From a virus, in IMG/VR virus record IMGVR_UViG_3300035698_017305, positions 32,001 through 96,000 of that record: a DNA stretch of 64,000 nucleotides; one strand, 5' to 3'. Below the pieces are notes generated by a model that saw nothing but the letters and a program-made list of their open reading frames with translations, searched no databases and was not told the DNA's origin. Position 1 is the first letter of the stretch. Each line of letters opens with the position of its first letter. A program made the translations under genes and the position numbers. Positions 14,809-32,037 of the stretch are shown here, piece after piece.

Positions 14809-15017
14809 TGCAAGGGTCCAAGGTACCAGCACCACTGTGTCCGAATCCTTTATGCCGCAATCAGTTCACCATACGAGTGAAGACTGTGGCAGGTGGGAAG
14901 CGCGCTGAATACATCTGTCCTAAATGCGCGGAGTCTTTTGAGATTCCTCGTGTTGTTATGGGGGAACCCAACCTAAAAAGAAGGGGGAGCACCATTGGCT
15001 CTCCCCCCTCTGACTAA
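14808..15017 (+). CDS. small zinc-ribbon protein
   Basis: CPNPLC...CPKC pairs. Confidence 0.6.
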   Translation: MQGSKVPAPLCPNPLCRNQFTIRVKTVAGGKRAEYICPKCAESFEIPRVVMGEPNLKRRGSTIGSPPSD

Positions 15018-15664
15018 CTGAACAGGTTGTAGGCAGTCATCTTCATGTCTTTCAACGTGAACATGTATCCTAGGTACTCGTCGTTGTCTATAAACCGGCA
15101 TATAGCCTCAGCCATCATACCCACAGTGAAGTGTACTAGGTTACGCGCAAGTGGGTACTCACACACATCCAGTCCGTCCTCTTCAACAGCGGGTCGTTTA
15201 AACCTAGGGTTCCAATACACCTCGGAGTAACCTTGAGCGGCCATCCCTCCGTGTAAGCAGGGCACCACACCATTTCCGCATGTGTCATGGATTAGTTGCC
15301 GGGAGTCCCAGTTGTCAAACGCATCCACCACAAGGCGGTTGCCCCTAAGTATCTTGAGTGCGTTCTTTTCAACCAGCCTACACGTCTCTATCACAGGTTT
15401 AACCCGGTATGCTTGGTAGATCATAGCCTGCATCACAGCAGCTTTGTTCTTCCCAATGAACCTCCTTTCAAAGTTCTGGTTACCTAGGTTATGAGATTCT
15501 ATCTTGTCATCATCCAGGAACCTGACGTTATTAAACCCCAGTTGGTACAGGATAGGAATTAGGTTTGACCCTAAAGCCCCCACGCCACACACCATTATCT
15601 GTGAGTTCTTTCTTCGTGTCAGGTCACCTCGATACAACTCCTCATGGGTTAGGGCATCCGCCAT
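15014..15664 (-). CDS. ThiF/E1-like enzyme (system 2)
   Basis: VCGVGALGS, DDDKIESHNLGNQ, GKNKA, VVDAFDN; candidate catalytic Cys in 'DVCEYPLARN'. Confidence 0.9.
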   Translation of the reverse strand: MADALTHEELYRGDLTRRKNSQIMVCGVGALGSNLIPILYQLGFNNVRFLDDDKIESHNLGNQNFERRFIGKNKAAVMQAMIYQAYRVKPVIETCRLVEKNALKILRGNRLVVDAFDNWDSRQLIHDTCGNGVVPCLHGGMAAQGYSEVYWNPRFKRPAVEEDGLDVCEYPLARNLVHFTVGMMAEAICRFIDNDEYLGYMFTLKDMKMTAYNLFS

Positions 15665-16136
15665 TTTTCCCTCTTATCTGCGGTAGACATGCCTGTCCGA
15701 GTATGGAGGCCCCTTCAAAGTAAAGGTTTCGTCCACGCATGGATAGCAGATCTATGCGGTTGTGGATTTGAATTGGTTGCTTATCCGGCAGGGGTAGAAA
15801 CAGGAAACACCCTATGGTTTGGAAGTCACCAGACGCTGATGCGATGATACATAGCAACGGTCTTCCCAATGCTATTGCCCACCCTGAGTGAGTCCTATGG
15901 TCTGTAGCACTCCAGTGCACGCCCCCACCCGGTGGATGCGTATGCAAGAAGCCAATGAAGTCACTGTGGGGTACAGACAGTTCGTGCAGTCTTTCCATAG
16001 TGACTTCAAAGTCGAAGTTAGCCGGTCCGTTGTCAGTGTAATCAATAGGTATCTTCTGGAGGAGGTGCTCAGCATCTATAGCCTCAGCGAAGTGCAAGGT
16101 CCATCCTAGTTCCCGGAACCTAGTCATAGTAGACAC
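15642..16136 (-). CDS. JAB/JAMM metalloprotease (system 2)
   Basis: 'GFLHTHP-x7-SATD' JAMM motif. Confidence 0.8.
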   Translation of the reverse strand: MSTMTRFRELGWTLHFAEAIDAEHLLQKIPIDYTDNGPANFDFEVTMERLHELSVPHSDFIGFLHTHPPGGGVHWSATDHRTHSGWAIALGRPLLCIIASASGDFQTIGCFLFLPLPDKQPIQIHNRIDLLSMRGRNLYFEGASILGQACLPQIRGKNGGCPNP

Positions 16137-17784: not shown

Positions 17785-17858
17785 GGAGAATGACGGGATT
17801 CGAACCCGCAGTACCTGGAGTCACAGTCCAGTGCCATAACCGTTAGGCTACACTCTCC
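17785..17858 (-). tRNA. tRNA-His(GTG)
   Basis: 8-bp acceptor with G-1:C73 (GGAGAGTG/CATTCTCC), anticodon arm CTGGA-CTGTGAC-TCCAG, T arm GCGGG-TTCGAAT-CCCGT. No encoded CCA. Confidence 0.95.
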
Positions 17859-17887
17859 ATAAATTCTCCGCCCCCTACCCACACTAA

Positions 17888-19606
17888 TTAGGCTGCTCTA
17901 TCGTCTACGGGCAGTGGTGTGTCCATGATCTCTTGCAGAGTGTTCCTAAGAGTTCTGCGAGACAGGAACCTGATAACATCCGGGACCGCAATGAGGTCAG
18001 TGCTGTCGTCCAGGTTGAACACTTGAATGGCGGTGCCAGCGGTGGCCGCAGCATCACGTACACAGCGGTGTCTCTTGTCTTCCAGACTGCCCCACCTTCC
18101 CAGTTTAATCAAGCAAATACTTACCTCATCTGATCCAGGAGGAGCCGTCTCCAGATACTTGGGCCACACATCCGGGAACCGAGGAGCACTATTCTCTCCT
18201 TCATCCGTGATGATAATGACGTTTTCCGCAAAGTCACCACTCCTCATCATCTCGTCGATGCCTACACCAACAGAGGTGGATCCAAGTGCTCTTACCCTAC
18301 GGAACGCCGTAGTCCAGTCCTGTAGCGTACCTCTGCCCGGTACATTGATCTTGTCGGCTTTCACCTCGAAGGTGTATGTGTGCAGAGGAGTACCCGCAAC
18401 CATGGAGGCCGAAATCATAGACCCCAAGGTCTTGGCCAGCTCGATTGCAGCACCCATGGACGTACTACAGTCAACCAGAAGAACGGTCGGCTTGTTGATA
18501 ACCTTCTTGACGCGGGCGTCAGACACTTGGAGAATTTTCTCCTTGATATCTGCGCTGACAGCGGTAGATTCCGCAGCTTTCACCGCCTTTAAGGTATCAA
18601 CCCGACCAGACTTCTTGGCCTTCTTCAGTCGAGACTCCAAGAGCTTGGCAAGGTCCGGGTTGTCCCATGCACCTTTCTTCCTGAATGCTTCCACATTCAT
18701 CAGAAGCTCCTGAGGAGACATTACACTGATCAGTGCTGCCATAACAGCAGGAGTCTGAGTAGTCACCGAGCCTACCGCGATTGGGTAGGGGATTTTGTAC
18801 TTGGCGATCAATTCAGCCTGCTCAGCAGGGTCACTTGTGGTACTCAGCACCTTCTGGTAGTACAGCTTAGGAGTCCTGTGTTCGAGTGGATTCTTCTCAA
18901 ACAGGGCTGACTGTACCCATCCAACTGGTGGTGTATGCGTCCAACTGTACAGAGACTTCAGTGCGCTACCAGCTCTGACAGCGATGGCATCAAACATTTC
19001 TGTGTTGTCCTCCAGGTCACGGAGTAGGCCACCCACAACCTTGCTGACCCTCTTAGGAATGTTCTTAGCTCCCGGGATACCGGTTACCTGGAACACTGAG
19101 GTCATGTAGGTGCCGTCCCGATTCTTCTCAAACCGGAGGTCTGCATCTTTTGCTCTGGGAATCTTGGCTTTGACCAACCTCAGGAATGCTTCCCGTTCCG
19201 TAGCCGTGGAAGTGCCGTTCCGTAGCTTTGGGTTTAGGTCCGTCTTTGCCTTCATGATGTCCTTGTCGTCAGACAATTTCACCACAACCTTACCTTCCTT
19301 GAGCAGGTTGATGATCCGGTGAATCTCATACACTGGGAACCTGGGCAGTAAGGCAGCCCCAACATCCCTGAACAGGACGTCATCAGGCATACCTCGGAGT
19401 AAGTACGCTGTCATCAGTTCCTTGTGATCCCGGATCTCCGTGTTGTCCATGGCCCATACAGCGAGGTGGGCGAAGAATTCCGGGTCCGCTTCGAACATTG
19501 TCCGGAATAACTCATGAGATCCCTTGCCGATATTCCGGTGTGGAGTACTCATGAAAGCCTTTAGCATGTCCAATCGGACATCAGCTTCTCTGGTTTCGGT
19601 CGCCAT
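17888..19606 (-). CDS. TROVE-domain (Ro60/Rsr-like) RNA-binding protein with C-terminal vWA
   Basis: 572 aa; 'DVRLDMLKAFMSTPHR', 'DPEFFAHLAVW', 'YKIPYPIAVG', 'MSPQEL'; vWA 'LLVDCSTSM' and 'IIITDEGEN'. Confidence 0.8.
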   Translation of the reverse strand: MATETREADVRLDMLKAFMSTPHRNIGKGSHELFRTMFEADPEFFAHLAVWAMDNTEIRDHKELMTAYLLRGMPDDVLFRDVGAALLPRFPVYEIHRIINLLKEGKVVVKLSDDKDIMKAKTDLNPKLRNGTSTATEREAFLRLVKAKIPRAKDADLRFEKNRDGTYMTSVFQVTGIPGAKNIPKRVSKVVGGLLRDLEDNTEMFDAIAVRAGSALKSLYSWTHTPPVGWVQSALFEKNPLEHRTPKLYYQKVLSTTSDPAEQAELIAKYKIPYPIAVGSVTTQTPAVMAALISVMSPQELLMNVEAFRKKGAWDNPDLAKLLESRLKKAKKSGRVDTLKAVKAAESTAVSADIKEKILQVSDARVKKVINKPTVLLVDCSTSMGAAIELAKTLGSMISASMVAGTPLHTYTFEVKADKINVPGRGTLQDWTTAFRRVRALGSTSVGVGIDEMMRSGDFAENVIIITDEGENSAPRFPDVWPKYLETAPPGSDEVSICLIKLGRWGSLEDKRHRCVRDAAATAGTAIQVFNLDDSTDLIAVPDVIRFLSRRTLRNTLQEIMDTPLPVDDRAA

Positions 19607-19653: not shown

Positions 19654-19714
19654 AAAAAAAGATCGCAGGAAGTCACCGAGGTAGGTCCAATACCACGGAA
19701 GTGCTTGCGATCTT
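19654..19714 (-). other. long hairpin followed by a U-tract between the RNA array and TROVE (terminator/attenuator or divergent small RNA)
   Basis: Minus strand AAGATCGCA...TGCGATCTT outer stem, inner CAC/GTG, CG/CG and GGT/ACC pairs, then TTTTT. Confidence 0.5.
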
Positions 19715-19746
19715 CCCCATGTGGGGACTGTCTAATGAATATGGTT

Positions 19747-19825
19747 AGAACAGCTAGCTAGTCGTGGGAACCGTTGTTTTTCGCCAAATGAAAATGTATG
19801 TTCCGACTGTAGGGCTAGCTGTTCT
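19747..19825 (-). ncRNA. unit 1: scaffold + isolated anticodon-like stem-loop
   Basis: Terminal stem AGAACAGCTAGC/GCTAGCTGTTCT; payload TTTTC-ATTTGGC-GAAAA (5 bp, 7-nt loop, central TTG). Confidence 0.75.
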
Positions 19826-19838
19826 TTTCTGACTTGGT

Positions 19839-19987
19839 TTCTGGGGTAGCGAGTCTGTAGGCCCAATTGATTTGTTAGTCTGATCCGTAGTCAGATGCCT
19901 TAACCACTTGGCCACATATGATTTCTCACATGATGGGATTCGAACCCACGTTAAAATGTATGGCCCACATGTAGGGCTACCCTAGAA
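19839..19987 (-). ncRNA. unit 2: scaffold + permuted tRNA-Arg(ACG)-like domain opened at the variable loop
   Basis: Order: T arm GTGGG-TTCGAAT-CCCAT; closed acceptor CATGTGA-GAAA-TCATATG; D arm GCC-AAGTGGTTAA-GGC; anticodon arm TCTGA-CTACGGA-TCAGA. Confidence 0.85.
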
Positions 19988-19999
19988 CTGTATAGTGTT

Positions 20000-20149
20000 T
20001 TTCGAGAGTGCTAGTCGAAGGACCCATTGTAAAACTGGATGCTCTACCATTGAGCTACTTGGGCTCAAGCCCAAGACAGGAATTGAACCTGCGCCTTCCC
20101 CTTGGTATGGGACGTTTGTGTATGGCCCGTCTGTAGGGCACTCTCGAAA
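20000..20149 (-). ncRNA. unit 3: scaffold + permuted tRNA-Gly(ACC)-like domain opened between D and anticodon arms
   Basis: Order: TCCC-ATACCAA-GGGG; AGGC; T arm GCAGG-TTCAATT-CCTGT; closed acceptor CTTGGGC-TTGA-GCCCAAG; D arm TA-GCTC-AATGGTA-GAGC. Confidence 0.8.
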
Positions 20150-20163
20150 TTGTGTATAAATGC

Positions 20164-20317
20164 TATGGAACTAGCGAGTCGTAAAGCCCATTGATCTTTA
20201 ATCGCTTGTGCTAAATACAAGTGCCTTTACCAATTTGGCCACTCTGGGTGAGCCCCAGAGGAAGGATTCGAACCTCCAAAATGATATGTATGGCTTAACT
20301 GTAGGGCTAATTCCATA
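20164..20317 (-). ncRNA. unit 4: scaffold + permuted tRNA-Leu-like domain opened before the T arm
   Basis: Order: T arm GGAGG-TTCGAAT-CCTTC; closed acceptor CTCTGGG-GCTCA-CCCAGAG; D arm GCC-AAATTGGTAAA-GGC; CTTGT-ATTTAGC-ACAAG; short variable-arm-like hairpin GAT-TAAAG-ATC. Confidence 0.8.
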
Positions 20318-20329
20318 TTGAAACTGTTA

Positions 20330-20469
20330 AGGTGCGGCTAGCTAGTCGAGAGACCCATATTAGGTACACCGAGGTGGAATTGAACCACCGACTTTTTGCT
20401 TAATAGGCAAATGCTCTATCCAACTGAGCTATTGGTATGTATGGCCTAACTGTAGGGCTAACCGAACCT
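20330..20469 (-). ncRNA. unit 5: scaffold + unpermuted tRNA-Asn(ATT)-like cloverleaf (20365-20438)
   Basis: ATACCAA / TA-GCTC-AGTTGGATA-GAGC / TTTGC-CTATTAA-GCAAA / AAGTC / GGTGG-TTCAATT-CCACC / TCGGTGT-A-CCT, attached to the scaffold through the acceptor end. Confidence 0.85.
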
Positions 20470-20492
20470 ATATTTGATTTCCAAAGAACTGA

Positions 20493-20664
20493 ACATTAGA
20501 GAAGATGGGGCAGCTAGTCGAGAGATCCCAAGTAACTTAACTAAGCTACTCCCCCGTAGTGGTGGGGGAGGCTGGAATTGAACCAGCGACACTTTACTTT
20601 CACGTAAATGCTCTACCATTGTTTGTATGATCCAACTGTAGGGCTACCTCATCATCTCTAATGT
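20493..20664 (-). ncRNA. unit 6: scaffold + permuted tRNA-Phe-like domain opened in the D loop, with internal ACCA
   Basis: Order: AATGGTA-GAGC; TTTAC-GTGAAA-GTAAA; GTGTC; T arm GCTGG-TTCAATT-CCAGC; CTCCCCC-ACCA-CTAC-GGGGGAG; TA-GCTT-AG. Confidence 0.85.
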
Positions 20665-20674
20665 CAAAGAATTA

Positions 20675-20810
20675 AACTGTGAGCGGGTAACTAGTCGAAG
20701 GGCCTTTGTAACGTTCTGCTTCATCAGCAGCCCCCGTATGGTGGAGGCTCAGGGAGTTAAACCCCGAACTGTTATGTACGGTCCCACTGTAGGGTTACCC
20801 CGTCACAGTT
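20675..20810 (-). ncRNA. unit 7: scaffold + permuted tmRNA/tRNA-Ala-like acceptor-T domain
   Basis: T arm CGGGG-TTTAACT-CCCTG; AGCCTCC-ACCA-TAC-GGGGGCT with G3:U70 and A73; no D stem. Begins at the stop codon of the upstream Ubl gene. Confidence 0.8.
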
Positions 20811-21036
20811 ATTTACCGAACTTACCGTCTGGCCTCAAGTGTACTGTGCCGGACGCTTCAAATGGGTCTGCAACAAACGAGTTGAATGTTGAGACGTCTT
20901 TGCTGAGTGCACCGGCTACTGCCAGCTTAAGGTCTGCTTCATCGAAGACATCTCCTAAGTCCAACTCCTCCACTGGGAGTGTTTGGGATTGTCCGTCAAC
21001 GAACACGTTTATGAATTGGAAGTTATTACGTTCCAT
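20809..21036 (-). CDS. small ubiquitin-like (beta-grasp) protein candidate (system 2), ends -KFG-K
   Basis: 75 aa from the ATG at 21036 (AAGGAG RBS); 'INVFVDGQSQTLP...LDLG...DLKLAVAGAL...VHLRPDGKFGK'. Co-oriented with TROVE-vWA-JAB-E1. Confidence 0.6.
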   Translation of the reverse strand: MERNNFQFINVFVDGQSQTLPVEELDLGDVFDEADLKLAVAGALSKDVSTFNSFVADPFEASGTVHLRPDGKFGK

Positions 21037-21083
21037 CTTGATCTCCTTATGGCGTACTTTATACCTGATTCTCAGATGGCCCG

Positions 21084-22103
21084 TCAAGAACTTTTTATTT
21101 TTGATTTCCCCCACATGACCGGTGCAGGTTTTCCGTCCTTGAGTATGGGCTTAGCCTTGTGTTTCTTCTTTGGCCTGGGGGGAGGGGCTGGTAGCTTGTC
21201 AGACTTCCTGATCTTATCCAACGTTAGCTTAGCCACGGCCTCTCCTATAGCCAGTGCCTGTGAGTCCCTGGGGAATAGATGGCGTTTACCATCAGATAAC
21301 CCGTAGTGCCGGTTACCTTCCCAGAATATATAGCTACCATCCCGTAGTTTACTGTAGTCTAGTGCTACGAAATCGTGTCCGAGCAGTTGGCCCGCCCGCA
21401 ATACTTGATCAGCATTAGGCTCACCGCCCCTCAAGAACATCCTGTCCTCGTGCAGGGCCTGTGGGTGTGTAAGTGTATCCCTCATGTGAACGTTCCACTT
21501 GTCAGCGACAACCAACTGGCGCAGAATCAGTTGATCTCCTATGACAAACGTTCTCCACTTCCGGTAGTATCCATCTTCACTCTGGTAATCTGCATACTTG
21601 ATAGCCAGGGTTAGCTTTACCCTACTGTCTTTGATTACCTTAGCCGCCTCTTTACTGTTGTGTACGAGGTGCATGTGACGGCCACCATGGTCACTGTCTC
21701 TTCTTAGAATGGCTGGGTAGCCAATAGATAGAGCAGTGAATGATGAGAACAGTTGATGCTGCGGAGTTGGGATACCATTATCTTCCCACACCCTATACAT
21801 CGTAGAGTGTTTGTTATCGAACTTACTGATTGGTTGTATCACAGGCAGGCCAATCTCGCGTGCCCGGACTTCTATCTGTTTGGCTTTGGAGAGGTACTCT
21901 TGCTTGGCTCCATACGACCAGAACAAGATCGCATCATAGTCGAACAACTTGGGCATGGCCGTGAACTGGGGACATATAGTTGTCCATTTCAGCCCAGCCT
22001 TTTGAAACCCGTCAGTCAGGGATTTACCTGCGGGGTTACGGGTAAACATCGCTTCTGTGTTAGTTACCACTAGAACTCTAGGTCCCTGACCGACTGGTGC
22101 CAT
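21084..22103 (-). CDS. ATP-grasp enzyme (paralog of 12184..13209)
   Basis: 'YPAILRRDSDHGG', 'YYRKWRTFVIG', 'FVALDYS', 'IFWEGN'. Confidence 0.8.
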   Translation of the reverse strand: MAPVGQGPRVLVVTNTEAMFTRNPAGKSLTDGFQKAGLKWTTICPQFTAMPKLFDYDAILFWSYGAKQEYLSKAKQIEVRAREIGLPVIQPISKFDNKHSTMYRVWEDNGIPTPQHQLFSSFTALSIGYPAILRRDSDHGGRHMHLVHNSKEAAKVIKDSRVKLTLAIKYADYQSEDGYYRKWRTFVIGDQLILRQLVVADKWNVHMRDTLTHPQALHEDRMFLRGGEPNADQVLRAGQLLGHDFVALDYSKLRDGSYIFWEGNRHYGLSDGKRHLFPRDSQALAIGEAVAKLTLDKIRKSDKLPAPPPRPKKKHKAKPILKDGKPAPVMWGKSKIKSS

Positions 22104-30625: not shown

Positions 30626-32037
30626 TCCATATCAAGTAGTTCGTTCCCACACTCACTCGGTTCTTTGTCAGTCCGAACCCTCCTCTGCCTAGGAAAGGTT
30701 ACGGCGTTGGATATCTCTCCACGGGAAAGGTACTTCCTTTTAGCGTACTCCACTTCCCAAACCTGCGGGTACATACTCGGATCGGCATTATCTTTAGCCC
30801 AGTCGTCCGTAAAGCCTGAACCACAGTTACAGATAAAGACTGGAGTTCCTTTCGAATCGTACTGGTATAACGCCACTGATCCCACATGCCCCATATGTTT
30901 CCCTGTTCCATATTCTCCCATCCCTTCATCTGGATTCCAATAAATTACGAAGTCATCTTCAAAGATTGGCTTCACCTTACACGACACCGCTGATGGCCTG
31001 TACGGTTTCCCATGAAACATTAGGCCCTGTTCACCCATGATACCGTCTGGGTCTGTCACCACAAACCCTTCCCACTTGGCTTCAACCGCGATAGCTAACG
31101 CTACTGCCACCGGGTCCTTCATGTCTACCTCGGTCCTATCTGGGCCACTTACTCCTGATAGTAGGTTCCCCGTACTTAGAACTTCTGGGGGTAGAAGCTG
31201 CTCAAATCCTCGACACCCGGTGATCTTGTCCTTAACCCAACCGATCCGTTCCCTCATGTTCATGCTGCGGATGTAGTCATTCCCATCTACAAATGCTACG
31301 TCCCACACGTAGTAGAACAGCTTACCCTGCTTAGCTTGGCGCTCTACCGCGTCATTAGCATTGGATATACCGGTTACGTAGTCGAAGTTATCATCTTCCT
31401 TAGAGGCTACCAGTTCCCCCAGTAGTACTGTGTTGTGGGGGATCTTACCCATAGCACACCAAGTCTCTAACGACCTGACTATGTGGTCAAACTTCTCACT
31501 CCAAGTGATTGACTCCGTTTTCTTCTTATCCAGAAGTCTCCGGGAGTACAGCCTAGCTTTGCCGTCATCTTGGATCACTGCCACGCACATAAGTCCATCC
31601 CTCTTACGCATGAACCACGCGGTCTTGTCCACCAGGATCTTCTTCATCATAGCTTTGCTGGGGTTGTGGGCTGGCTTATAGAATGCCCAGTTCTGTGGTA
31701 GTGGTCCGTCGAATACAAACCCCTCATACTTTGTCATGTTCAGTTTCTCTACTTCTTCCTGCTTCACCGACCCGTCACTGTTTAACCCAATGTATCCCTC
31801 CCTCTGTTTCATCTCAGCCTTACGGGTTGCCGTGTTGATAGCTACCTGTTCCGGGCTGATCTCATTTGTCTTACCAACGTTCTTGGCTAAACAAACATCT
31901 GTTGTAGACTGCATCTTCCCACCCTTGATACCCCAAGTGGCAGTGACTGATGAGCCCTCTGTCTCAATCGACCACGCCTTTGTTTTGGCCGTCCGGCCTC
32001 TGAACTGCTCAAGATCTACACGCATAGCTACTCCCAA
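30622..32037 (-). CDS. ATP-dependent DNA ligase with N-terminal WGR domain
   Basis: WGR-like 'KAWSI...VTATWGIKG'; motif I 'RKRDG', 'LLGEL', 'YVWDV', 'WEGFVV', 'KVKP', OB-fold 'GSGF' and 'FPR'. Confidence 0.9.
   Translation of the reverse strand: MGVAMRVDLEQFRGRTAKTKAWSIETEGSSVTATWGIKGGKMQSTTDVCLAKNVGKTNEISPEQVAINTATRKAEMKQREGYIGLNSDGSVKQEEVEKLNMTKYEGFVFDGPLPQNWAFYKPAHNPSKAMMKKILVDKTAWFMRKRDGLMCVAVIQDDGKARLYSRRLLDKKKTESITWSEKFDHIVRSLETWCAMGKIPHNTVLLGELVASKEDDNFDYVTGISNANDAVERQAKQGKLFYYVWDVAFVDGNDYIRSMNMRERIGWVKDKITGCRGFEQLLPPEVLSTGNLLSGVSGPDRTEVDMKDPVAVALAIAVEAKWEGFVVTDPDGIMGEQGLMFHGKPYRPSAVSCKVKPIFEDDFVIYWNPDEGMGEYGTGKHMGHVGSVALYQYDSKGTPVFICNCGSGFTDDWAKDNADPSMYPQVWEVEYAKRKYLSRGEISNAVTFPRQRRVRTDKEPSECGNELLDME

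Follow-up and report, generated by a model that had tools for sequence, protein, structure and literature searches.

A probable Ro60-associated, YrlA-type RNA unit with an alanine-type acceptor stem in a seven-unit array of a salt-lake virus record

The DNA analysed here, in the following called the window, comprises 64,000 nucleotides (positions 32,001 to 96,000) of the IMG/VR virus record IMGVR_UViG_3300035698_017305. The whole record of 132.8 kb is rated 71% complete by CheckV and was seen in salt-lake metagenomes. On the minus strand of the window an array of seven RNA units runs from 20810 to 19747. All seven have two flanking motifs in common, and their outer stems are complementary, each with a different sequence. 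The element under study, unit 7, is the first transcribed and promoter-proximal member of the array. It consists of 136 bases (20675-20810, minus strand) and is a complete Y-RNA-like unit, in which a long rod is joined to a permuted tRNA-like domain. The other six units (19747-20674, minus strand) are rods with other tRNA mimics, one of the rods being nearly without cargo. Unit 7 ends 1.07 kb upstream of a gene for a divergent Ro60 homologue, which is encoded on the same strand.

The Ro60 homologue (17888-19606, minus strand) has 572 amino acids and comprises a TROVE ring and a vWA domain with a DxSxS motif. It matches PHROG 850, while Pfam gave no match for this protein, for the small open reading frame (ORF) upstream of the array or for three neighbouring ORFs. 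A profile of its family, compared with the PDB, found the Ro60 proteins of phage phiLo, human, Xenopus and Deinococcus with E values from 1.9e-7 to 4e-3. The AlphaFold model (pLDDT 78.5) was placed by Foldseek next to Ro60 proteins only, since the top 11 matches are all Ro60 over the full length (E 1.7e-9 to 3e-7). The phiLo protein is the best match of both searches, and the closest protein relatives of the gene are at most 38% identical. By profile and by predicted fold the gene is thus confirmed as a Ro60 homologue.

The predicted fold of unit 7 (RNAfold, 20810-20675, minus strand) has an energy of -54.3 kcal/mol and a z score of -4.21, and none of 200 shuffled sequences was as stable. The long terminal rod ends in a four-way junction, whose other three arms are a T hairpin, an acceptor hairpin of 7 bp and, where a D arm would be, a small hairpin. 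The outer stem of the rod consists of 8+7 pairs between its 5' strand at 20794-20810 (AACUGUGA..GGGUAAC) and its partner at 20675-20691. The unit had been described as starting exactly at a stop codon, and its outer stem indeed begins inside the TAA (20811-20809) of the 75-amino-acid ORF, the outermost pairs taking the AA of this codon. Internal loop 1 has 8/8 nucleotides. Its 5' strand CCUACAGU (20786-20793) is conserved in all seven units and homologous to the CC-N-A-(C/A) strand at related loci; its 3' strand UUCGACUA (20692-20699) is also conserved, with an ACU core that is invariant among the relatives. It is followed by the 5 bp of stem 2 (GGGACC at 20780-20785, partner GGCCC at 20700-20704) and by internal loop 2 (GUACA/CAAA, 5/4 nucleotides), whose conserved 5' strand at 20775-20779 corresponds to the CAUACA or UACAAAC box of the family. 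Stem 3 (UAAC-A-GUUC at 20766-20774, partner 20709-20716) has 8 bp and takes the place of the anticodon stem.

The tRNA-like part begins with the T arm (20750-20766, CGGGG-UUUAACU-CCCUG), which has 5 bp and a loop without C56. Then follow the 3' strand of the acceptor (AGCCUCC at 20743-20749, equivalent to positions 66-72, with U70 at 20745), the acceptor loop (20736-20742) and the 5' strand of the acceptor (GGGGGCU at 20729-20735, with G1 at 20735 and G3 at 20733). The loop holds A73 and an encoded CCA (20742-20739) and a linker UAC (20738-20736). Among the seven acceptor pairs are G1:C72, G2:C71, G3:U70 and G4:C69, so that together with the discriminator A73 the identity set of tRNA-Ala is complete. 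The initial annotation had described a permuted tRNA mimic with G3:U70, A73 and CCA, and this holds letter by letter on the minus strand between 20766 and 20729. It had also stated that a D stem is missing. A hairpin of 3-5 bp (GCU-GAUGA-AGC, 20718-20728) in fact occupies the D position; its loop lacks the D-loop consensus and has no GG, and to this extent the statement stands. Unit 7 has no anticodon arm and forms no cloverleaf with an NGC anticodon, and neither ARAGORN nor the Rfam tRNA model reported it.

G3:U70 is the major determinant of alanyl-tRNA synthetase (AlaRS), which needs nothing beyond it in the acceptor-T helix. The acceptor-T minihelix is the part of a tRNA that is recognised by RNase P, the CCA enzyme, AlaRS and EF-Tu. 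Acceptor-T minihelices with G3:U70 are reported to be charged (Hou and Schimmel 1988; Francklyn and Schimmel 1989), and such a helix suffices for alanylation in vitro. Like minihelix-Ala and microhelix-Ala, unit 7 combines a coaxial acceptor-T helix, G3:U70 and A73-CCA without an anticodon. These two are laboratory constructs with free ends, whereas the helix of unit 7 is joined to a putative protein-binding rod and closed by a loop, which would have to be opened before charging.

The order of the elements is that of the YrlA RNAs, which are circularly permuted tRNAs with closed acceptor stems (PMC4201824; bioRxiv 10.1101/312249) and are encoded on the strand of the Ro60 gene, at most 4 kb away from it (PMC4201824). 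The Rfam consensus of YrlA (RF02553) runs from the T arm over a closed hairpin to the D arm, and in its predicted fold unit 7 has the same order, with a degenerate hairpin in the D position and the rod where the anticodon arm would be. The unit also lies within 4 kb of the Ro60/Rsr gene on the same strand. The initial annotation had likened the permuted order to that of two-piece transfer-messenger RNA (tmRNA). Since this order is the one of the YrlA model and a Ro60 gene adjoins the array, the permuted form has to be read as the standard YrlA layout instead. Three neighbouring units gave matches to the YrlA model with 36.4 (E 5e-6), 25.2 and 16.2 bits (E up to 3.8), the gathering score being 69. 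Very probably, unit 7 is a Ro60-associated unit of the YrlA type.

With the YrlAs unit 7 has in common the position upstream of a Ro60 gene on the same strand, the modular build of terminal stem and tRNA-like domain and a stem that replaces the anticodon arm. The YrlA of Mycobacterium smegmatis likewise has a 7-bp acceptor; it is cut by RNase P, nibbled and provided with CCA in vivo, and its aminoacylation was mentioned as a possibility (PMC4201824; bioRxiv 10.1101/312249). In contrast to the YrlAs, unit 7 has a longer handle with two conserved internal loops, a degenerate D arm and T loop, and a CCA which is encoded and not added as in M. smegmatis. It belongs to seven tandem units instead of one or two, and it carries the full alanine identity set, which is not mentioned for YrlA in the papers searched. 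A second system for comparison is the Thermus phage phiLo, whose Ro60 gene has two Y-like RNAs immediately upstream, which are bound by Ro60 (PMC12135203; PDB 9KOP, 9L5Y). A phage-encoded Ro60 with such RNAs upstream is also what the window holds. The two phiLo RNAs are built from two stems separated by a bulge with a CGAA motif and have no tRNA-like acceptor, unlike the seven units described here. Binding to Ro60 and to the host PNPase was demonstrated for phiLo (PMC12135203).

The rod of unit 7 is part of a larger family. Relatives of the Ro60 homologue are encoded at 27 IMG/VR loci, and at least 12 of these contain rod arrays on the same strand. The consensus of the rod reads stem 2, N-(G/A)ACU(U/C), outer stem, CC-N-A-(C/A), stem 2' and (A/U)UACAAAC. 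In an alignment of 18 closed rods compensatory changes were found in 9 of the 13 pairs, and stem 2 covaries both across this alignment and between the units of the window. Multi-copy matches of the rod motif in IMG/VR all fall within Ro60-bearing contigs. Beyond the phages, 455 bacterial relatives of the Ro60 homologue were found, among them proteins from Planctomycetota, Cyanobacteria, Chloroflexota and Desulfobacterota. Directly upstream of the Ro60 homologue, many of the 80 bacterial loci fetched have the same rod with cargo of the YrlA type. The rod is not represented by any Rfam family. By analogy with Y RNAs, its co-location and co-occurrence with Ro60 make it most likely that the rod serves as a handle for this protein.

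The placement of the rod varies within the family. It is either terminal, as in the window, or a closed hairpin inside the D region of a tRNA-like body; the latter is seen in standard-order tRNA-like genes at L001:3010-3073, L007:2758-2821 and other loci. In many cargo tRNAs the UACAAAC box doubles as the 5' strand of the acceptor, so that these tRNAs have one acceptor sequence in common. Cargo other than tRNA was also observed. In three phages the rod carries a UUCGG hairpin followed by GGCCCGGC...GCCGGGCACC (L001:2905-2985, L007:2390-2480, L013:2520-2600), and two stretches beside a Ro60-like gene (L230:3614-3696, L287:6345-6400) match bacterial 23S rRNA at positions around 1077-1160, the GTPase-associated centre, above the Rfam gathering score. 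The arrays thus seem to collect mimics of several translation RNAs, beyond tRNAs.

For the alanine mark a census was made of all perfect hairpins of 7 bp located immediately after a T arm. It yielded 89 on the Ro60 strand, from 63 of the 108 sources, as compared to four on the opposite strand; 75 of the hairpins are distinct. A 5'G-3'U pair occupies position 3:70 in 14 of the 75 distinct closed acceptors and any of the other six positions in 14 of 450 cases (odds ratio 7.1, p 3.6e-6), while ordinary tRNAs of the same loci have G:U at 3:70 in 6 of 225 cases (odds ratio 8.4, p 1.4e-5); both statistics count sequences and not independent events. The numbers clearly indicate that G:U is specifically enriched at 3:70 across the family, more than expected by chance. 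The majority of these units (11 of 14) read GGG..../....UCC, with positions 4-7 differing in a compensated manner, and eight of those 11 have A73. The enrichment is spread over phages, Planctomycetota, Desulfobacterota and cyanobacteria, all within one Ro60 clade. Eight bacterial G3:U70 units were scanned with the YrlA model (L210, L218, L250, L208, L209, L255, L266, L237), and all match it in the core of T arm, acceptor and D arm with 34-38 bits (gathering score 69); at six of these eight loci the G3:U70 unit is the only YrlA match. At several loci the G3:U70 unit is accompanied by another closed unit whose acceptor is of the GGCG type. Alanine is one identity among several in these arrays. 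Alanine-type acceptors were also found on units with the rod in the D region (L001:3142-3254, L017:832-954). No link was seen between G3:U70 and the loss of the anticodon arm (10/50 versus 4/25, p 0.76).

The encoded CCA is a second recurrent trait. Between seven and nine of the 75 loops start with NCCA, where 1.2 would be expected (p 2e-4 or lower), and only 2 of the 15 tRNA genes of the phage encode a CCA. G3:U70, NCCA and a linker of 3-4 nucleotides occur together in two other lineages, L229/L245 and L259. The proposal that cutting of the linker exposes the CCA has a published precedent in M. smegmatis YrlA, for which an RNase P cut and CCA in vivo were described (PMC4201824), and by analogy the RNase P site of unit 7 is predicted between 20736 and 20735. 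Acceptor loops of the planctomycete type (L210:3426, L218:1061, L255:3463, L228:7373, L248:3697 and others) have the consensus A-(C/U)-U-(C/U)-A-C, and the loops ACCA-UAC and ACCA-CUAC of the window likewise have UAC just before G1.

Two further members of the array illustrate the range of the cargo. Unit B (20498-20662, minus strand) contains a complete tRNA body whose opening lies in the D loop. The loop ACCA-CUAC closes its acceptor (GGGGGAG/CUCCCCC), and the loop that resembles an anticodon loop has no more than 6 nucleotides. Unit C (20363-20438, minus strand) is a complete cloverleaf in normal order, with 60.8 bits in the Rfam tRNA model and the unusual anticodon AUU; its acceptor stem runs on into the rod, and its 3' end is ACCU, not ACCA.

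The unit could be taken for a mimic specific to tmRNA, i.e. a copy of the tRNA-like domain of the phage or host tmRNA that SmpB, or a defence nuclease directed against tmRNA, would take as a decoy or substrate. The separate tmRNA that had been noted at positions 1-40 was indeed found by ARAGORN in the whole record. It is a full-length gene of the phage on the minus strand at window positions -313 to 40, which begins with its 5' end at 1-40 and runs off the start of the window. Its ends are GGGGGUG and CACCUCCACCA, followed by UAC in the DNA. Unit 7 and this gene have GGGGG and an exact run of 12 nucleotides, CCUCCACCAUAC, in common, and only 2 of 2000 shuffles score as well. The run spans the tmRNA 3' end and a 3-nucleotide trailer which is absent from the mature tmRNA; the CCUCCACCA-UAC run of the unit 7 acceptor loop accordingly recurs at the 3' end of the gene. 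When the 3' part of unit 7 was aligned to the tRNA-type genes of the phage, tmRNA and not an ordinary non-alanine tRNA was best, narrowly, with a score of 24 versus 22 for a tRNA-Leu. As in tmRNA (RF00023, RF04321), which is read by AlaRS, a G3:U70 acceptor is combined with ACCA, and as in permuted tmRNA genes the 3' strand of the acceptor comes first. At three Nostoc loci of the Ro60 clade (L275:1560-1643, L283:2204-2283, L287:1309-1388) the array even begins with an RNA of 84 nucleotides whose match to the Rfam tmRNA model (48.6 bits, gathering score 47) is confined to the tRNA-like domain; the acceptor of this RNA, GGGGCCG/CGGCUCC-ACCA, has G3:U70, and the RNA resembles a tmRNA without its 316-nucleotide middle. 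However, the Rfam model tmRNA_permuted gave only 11.5-13.4 bits on unit 7 (E 1.2-3.7, gathering score 47), limited to T arm and acceptor (model positions 36-93 of 213). Unit B has G3:C70 and is nearer to tmRNA, with 26.4 bits in the model and a better match to T arm and 3' end of the phage tmRNA (score 34 versus 24). By fold and direct reading unit 7 has no tmRNA D loop, helix 2a, pseudoknots or tag region, its T loop differs from the one of tmRNA, and the 46 nucleotides after the acceptor are a small hairpin and the 3' strand of the rod. A tag frame as in two-piece tmRNA was considered and rejected; the 18 open codons after the acceptor are not unusual by chance and do not resemble the tag AENQLPIAA. 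Also the UUCGAC of the rod, tried as a likeness to the tmRNA D loop, was dropped, as only ACU is invariant in the relatives. The acceptor strands are joined by 3 nucleotides and not by a long excised spacer as in permuted tmRNA, and the bacterial G3:U70 relatives carry the canonical D arm of a tRNA instead of the D loop of tmRNA. Models of SmpB, RtcB and the CCA-adding enzyme found no match in the record, the absence being unproven at 71% completeness. Because of the low model scores and of the missing tmRNA features beyond T arm and acceptor, unit 7 has an alanine/tmRNA-type acceptor end and is not a tmRNA. Of the mimicry proposed in the initial annotation there remain the alanine-type acceptor, the encoded CCA and the 3' sequence in common with the phage tmRNA, and nothing beyond T arm and acceptor; a copy aimed at tmRNA-specific factors is quite improbable.

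It is somewhat easier to imagine, though still rather unlikely, that unit 7 is a decaying or purely structural member with degenerate cargo, a chance wobble at G3:U70 and a role, if any, only as a Ro60-bound rod. Its T loop and D hairpin are the most degenerate of the array, no tRNA or YrlA model matches it, and its acceptor is one C-to-U transition away from the GGGGG/CCCCC-ACCA of unit B. In Nostoc the G:U occurs as an intermediate between G:C and A:U, and one rod of the window and several in relatives are nearly free of cargo, which indicates that cargo is dispensable for some units. Against this stand the family-wide, sevenfold enrichment of G:U specifically at 3:70, where it mostly comes with the complete GGG/UCC/A73 set, the stable fold of unit 7 (z -4.2) with a perfect minihelix of 7+5 bp and an encoded CCA that is rare among the tRNA genes of the phage, and the pairing of G3:U70 with NCCA and a short linker in L229/L245 and L259. 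For unit 7 taken alone G3:U70 could be chance, because it has no orthologue and unit B is only one transition away. By far the least probable explanation is a permuted tRNA gene whose rod is a processing signal, cut and ligated as at the bulge-helix-bulge motifs of archaeal and red-algal permuted tRNAs, so that a functional tRNA arises by way of a circular intermediate. The relatives do have the rod both at the ends of permuted units and inside the D region of ordinary-looking tRNAs (L001, L007), and the junctions of encoded CCA, linker and G1 resemble those of permuted tRNA genes. But without an anticodon arm unit 7 cannot give a decoding tRNA, removal of the rod from D-region insertions leaves no normal D arm, and the UACAAAC box is itself the common acceptor strand of many cargo tRNAs. 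Instead of a bulge-helix-bulge the flanks of unit 7 form a 35-bp rod with internal loops of 8/8 and 5/4 nucleotides; this rod is conserved as a structure beside an RNA-binding protein, like a handle, and no RtcB ligase was found in the record (71% complete). The rod was on these points rejected as an intron or as part of a permuted tRNA gene.

We favour, with a probability of roughly 60%, that unit 7 is a Ro60-tethered acceptor minihelix of the alanine type and a member of an array that serves the phage Ro60; as in the YrlA of M. smegmatis, RNase P would probably open the minihelix. Several observations weigh against it. Unit 7 matches neither the Rfam YrlA model (no match at E up to 10, and thus far from the threshold of 69 bits) nor the tRNA model. 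Its rod does not have the published Ro-binding motif GNCGAAN0-1G near the 5' end and reads CCUACAGU there; a CGAC is present on the 3' strand instead of the 5' strand. A normal tRNA elbow is doubtful and may not form, since the D hairpin and the T loop (UUUAACU, without C56) are so degenerate. No orthologue of unit 7, with which its own G:U could be compared, was found in any collection searched. A blastn search of GenBank phages gave tRNA matches only and no close relative of unit 7, and the motif GCCCTACAG..CATACA was found in 95 stretches of IMG/VR, of which the 80 listed have one match each, which suggests chance hits. The Nostoc acceptor, which occurs as G:C, G:U and A:U, follows a classic neutral path, and the enrichment is, as stated, a count of sequences. 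Many G3:U70 relatives have no CCA in the loop, so that cleavage and charging are not a given. The sequencing runs that carry the locus are DNA contigs only, with no RNA run among them; the four salt-lake DNA runs yielded identical contigs of low depth without variant letters.

On this basis the following sequence of events may be suggested for the Ro60-tethered minihelix. Each unit consists of two modules, the conserved rod, most likely the handle for Ro60, and a tRNA mimic as cargo, which by analogy would bind an effector; in unit 7 the cargo is essentially pared down to the acceptor-T minihelix. RNase P of the host would cut 5' of G1 (20735), and exonucleases would trim the UAC back to the encoded CCA. 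The resulting nicked RNA of two pieces would be held together by the rod and the acceptor pairs. Tethered to Ro60, the minihelix could then be recognised by those proteins for which this part of tRNA-Ala or tmRNA suffices, by AlaRS first and, if charged, by EF-Tu. Possible purposes are a protection of RNA from exonucleases, the tethering or titration of a factor specific for alanine acceptors, or a decoy against defences that attack the ends of tRNA-Ala or tmRNA. Binding to Ro60, cleavage by RNase P, alanylation and the purpose downstream are all steps that we infer. The odds that the alanine mark is functional in unit 7 appear to be just short of even, and that unit 7 is actually charged with alanine is rather unlikely.

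The genes around the array are in part conserved as well. The small ORF upstream (20809-21036, minus strand) encodes 75 amino acids ending in ...FG(K), and its stop codon overlaps the first pairs of unit 7. The protein is conserved and ends in Gly in 16 of the 27 related phage loci, with the motif H-I/V-R-Y-D-G-R-S...T-L/V-R-P-E/Q-A-V-F-G, the end being the Gly or 1-3 residues beyond. It is encoded just upstream of the Ro60-like gene, e.g. at L001:3400-3624 and L017:2084-2317 and also in Nostoc L275. Downstream in the window and in the same direction lie genes for a ThiF-type E1 (15014-15664) and a Prok-JAB peptidase (15642-16136). Direct reading suggests a promoter-like TTGACG-18 nt-TATAAA ahead of the small ORF (21058-21087, minus strand), and a putative terminator hairpin followed by U7 after the last unit (19655-19716, minus strand; fold z -3.0); a consensus scan for promoters and terminators called nothing relevant. 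According to ARAGORN the whole record encodes 16 tRNAs, none of them for alanine. One has the anticodon CUA (amber-reading, labelled Pyl) and lies outside the window (record 17832-17906).

That YrlA RNAs are encoded beside Ro60, also in phages, and that RNase P and CCA processing take place in one species is already published. Compared with the papers searched, the divergent rod handle, the array of seven units, the encoded CCA and the enrichment of alanine determinants across the family appear to be new, and no paper was found that joins the terms YrlA and alanyl-tRNA synthetase. The look of a permuted tmRNA turned out to be the ordinary YrlA layout, while the alanine mark is real and recurrent. 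A clade of Ro60 proteins travels with a covarying RNA handle which is found neither in Rfam nor in the papers searched and which is grafted at several positions of the tRNA body. The tRNA-like domain of bacterial Y RNAs has been without an identified partner since 2014, and their aminoacylation has been considered for one species only, as something possible. The position-specific enrichment of G3:U70 together with the retained NCCA makes the charging of closed-acceptor Y-like RNAs now testable. It is a long shot that there is a class of Ro60-associated Y RNAs, with unit 7 as its phage example, which RNase P opens and the host synthetase then charges with alanine, giving an aminoacylated, Ro60-tethered minihelix. 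If true, these would be the first natural aminoacylated Y RNAs, and the alanyl-minihelix could engage EF-Tu or the ribosome, or titrate factors or defence toxins specific for the acceptor end of tRNA-Ala or tmRNA.

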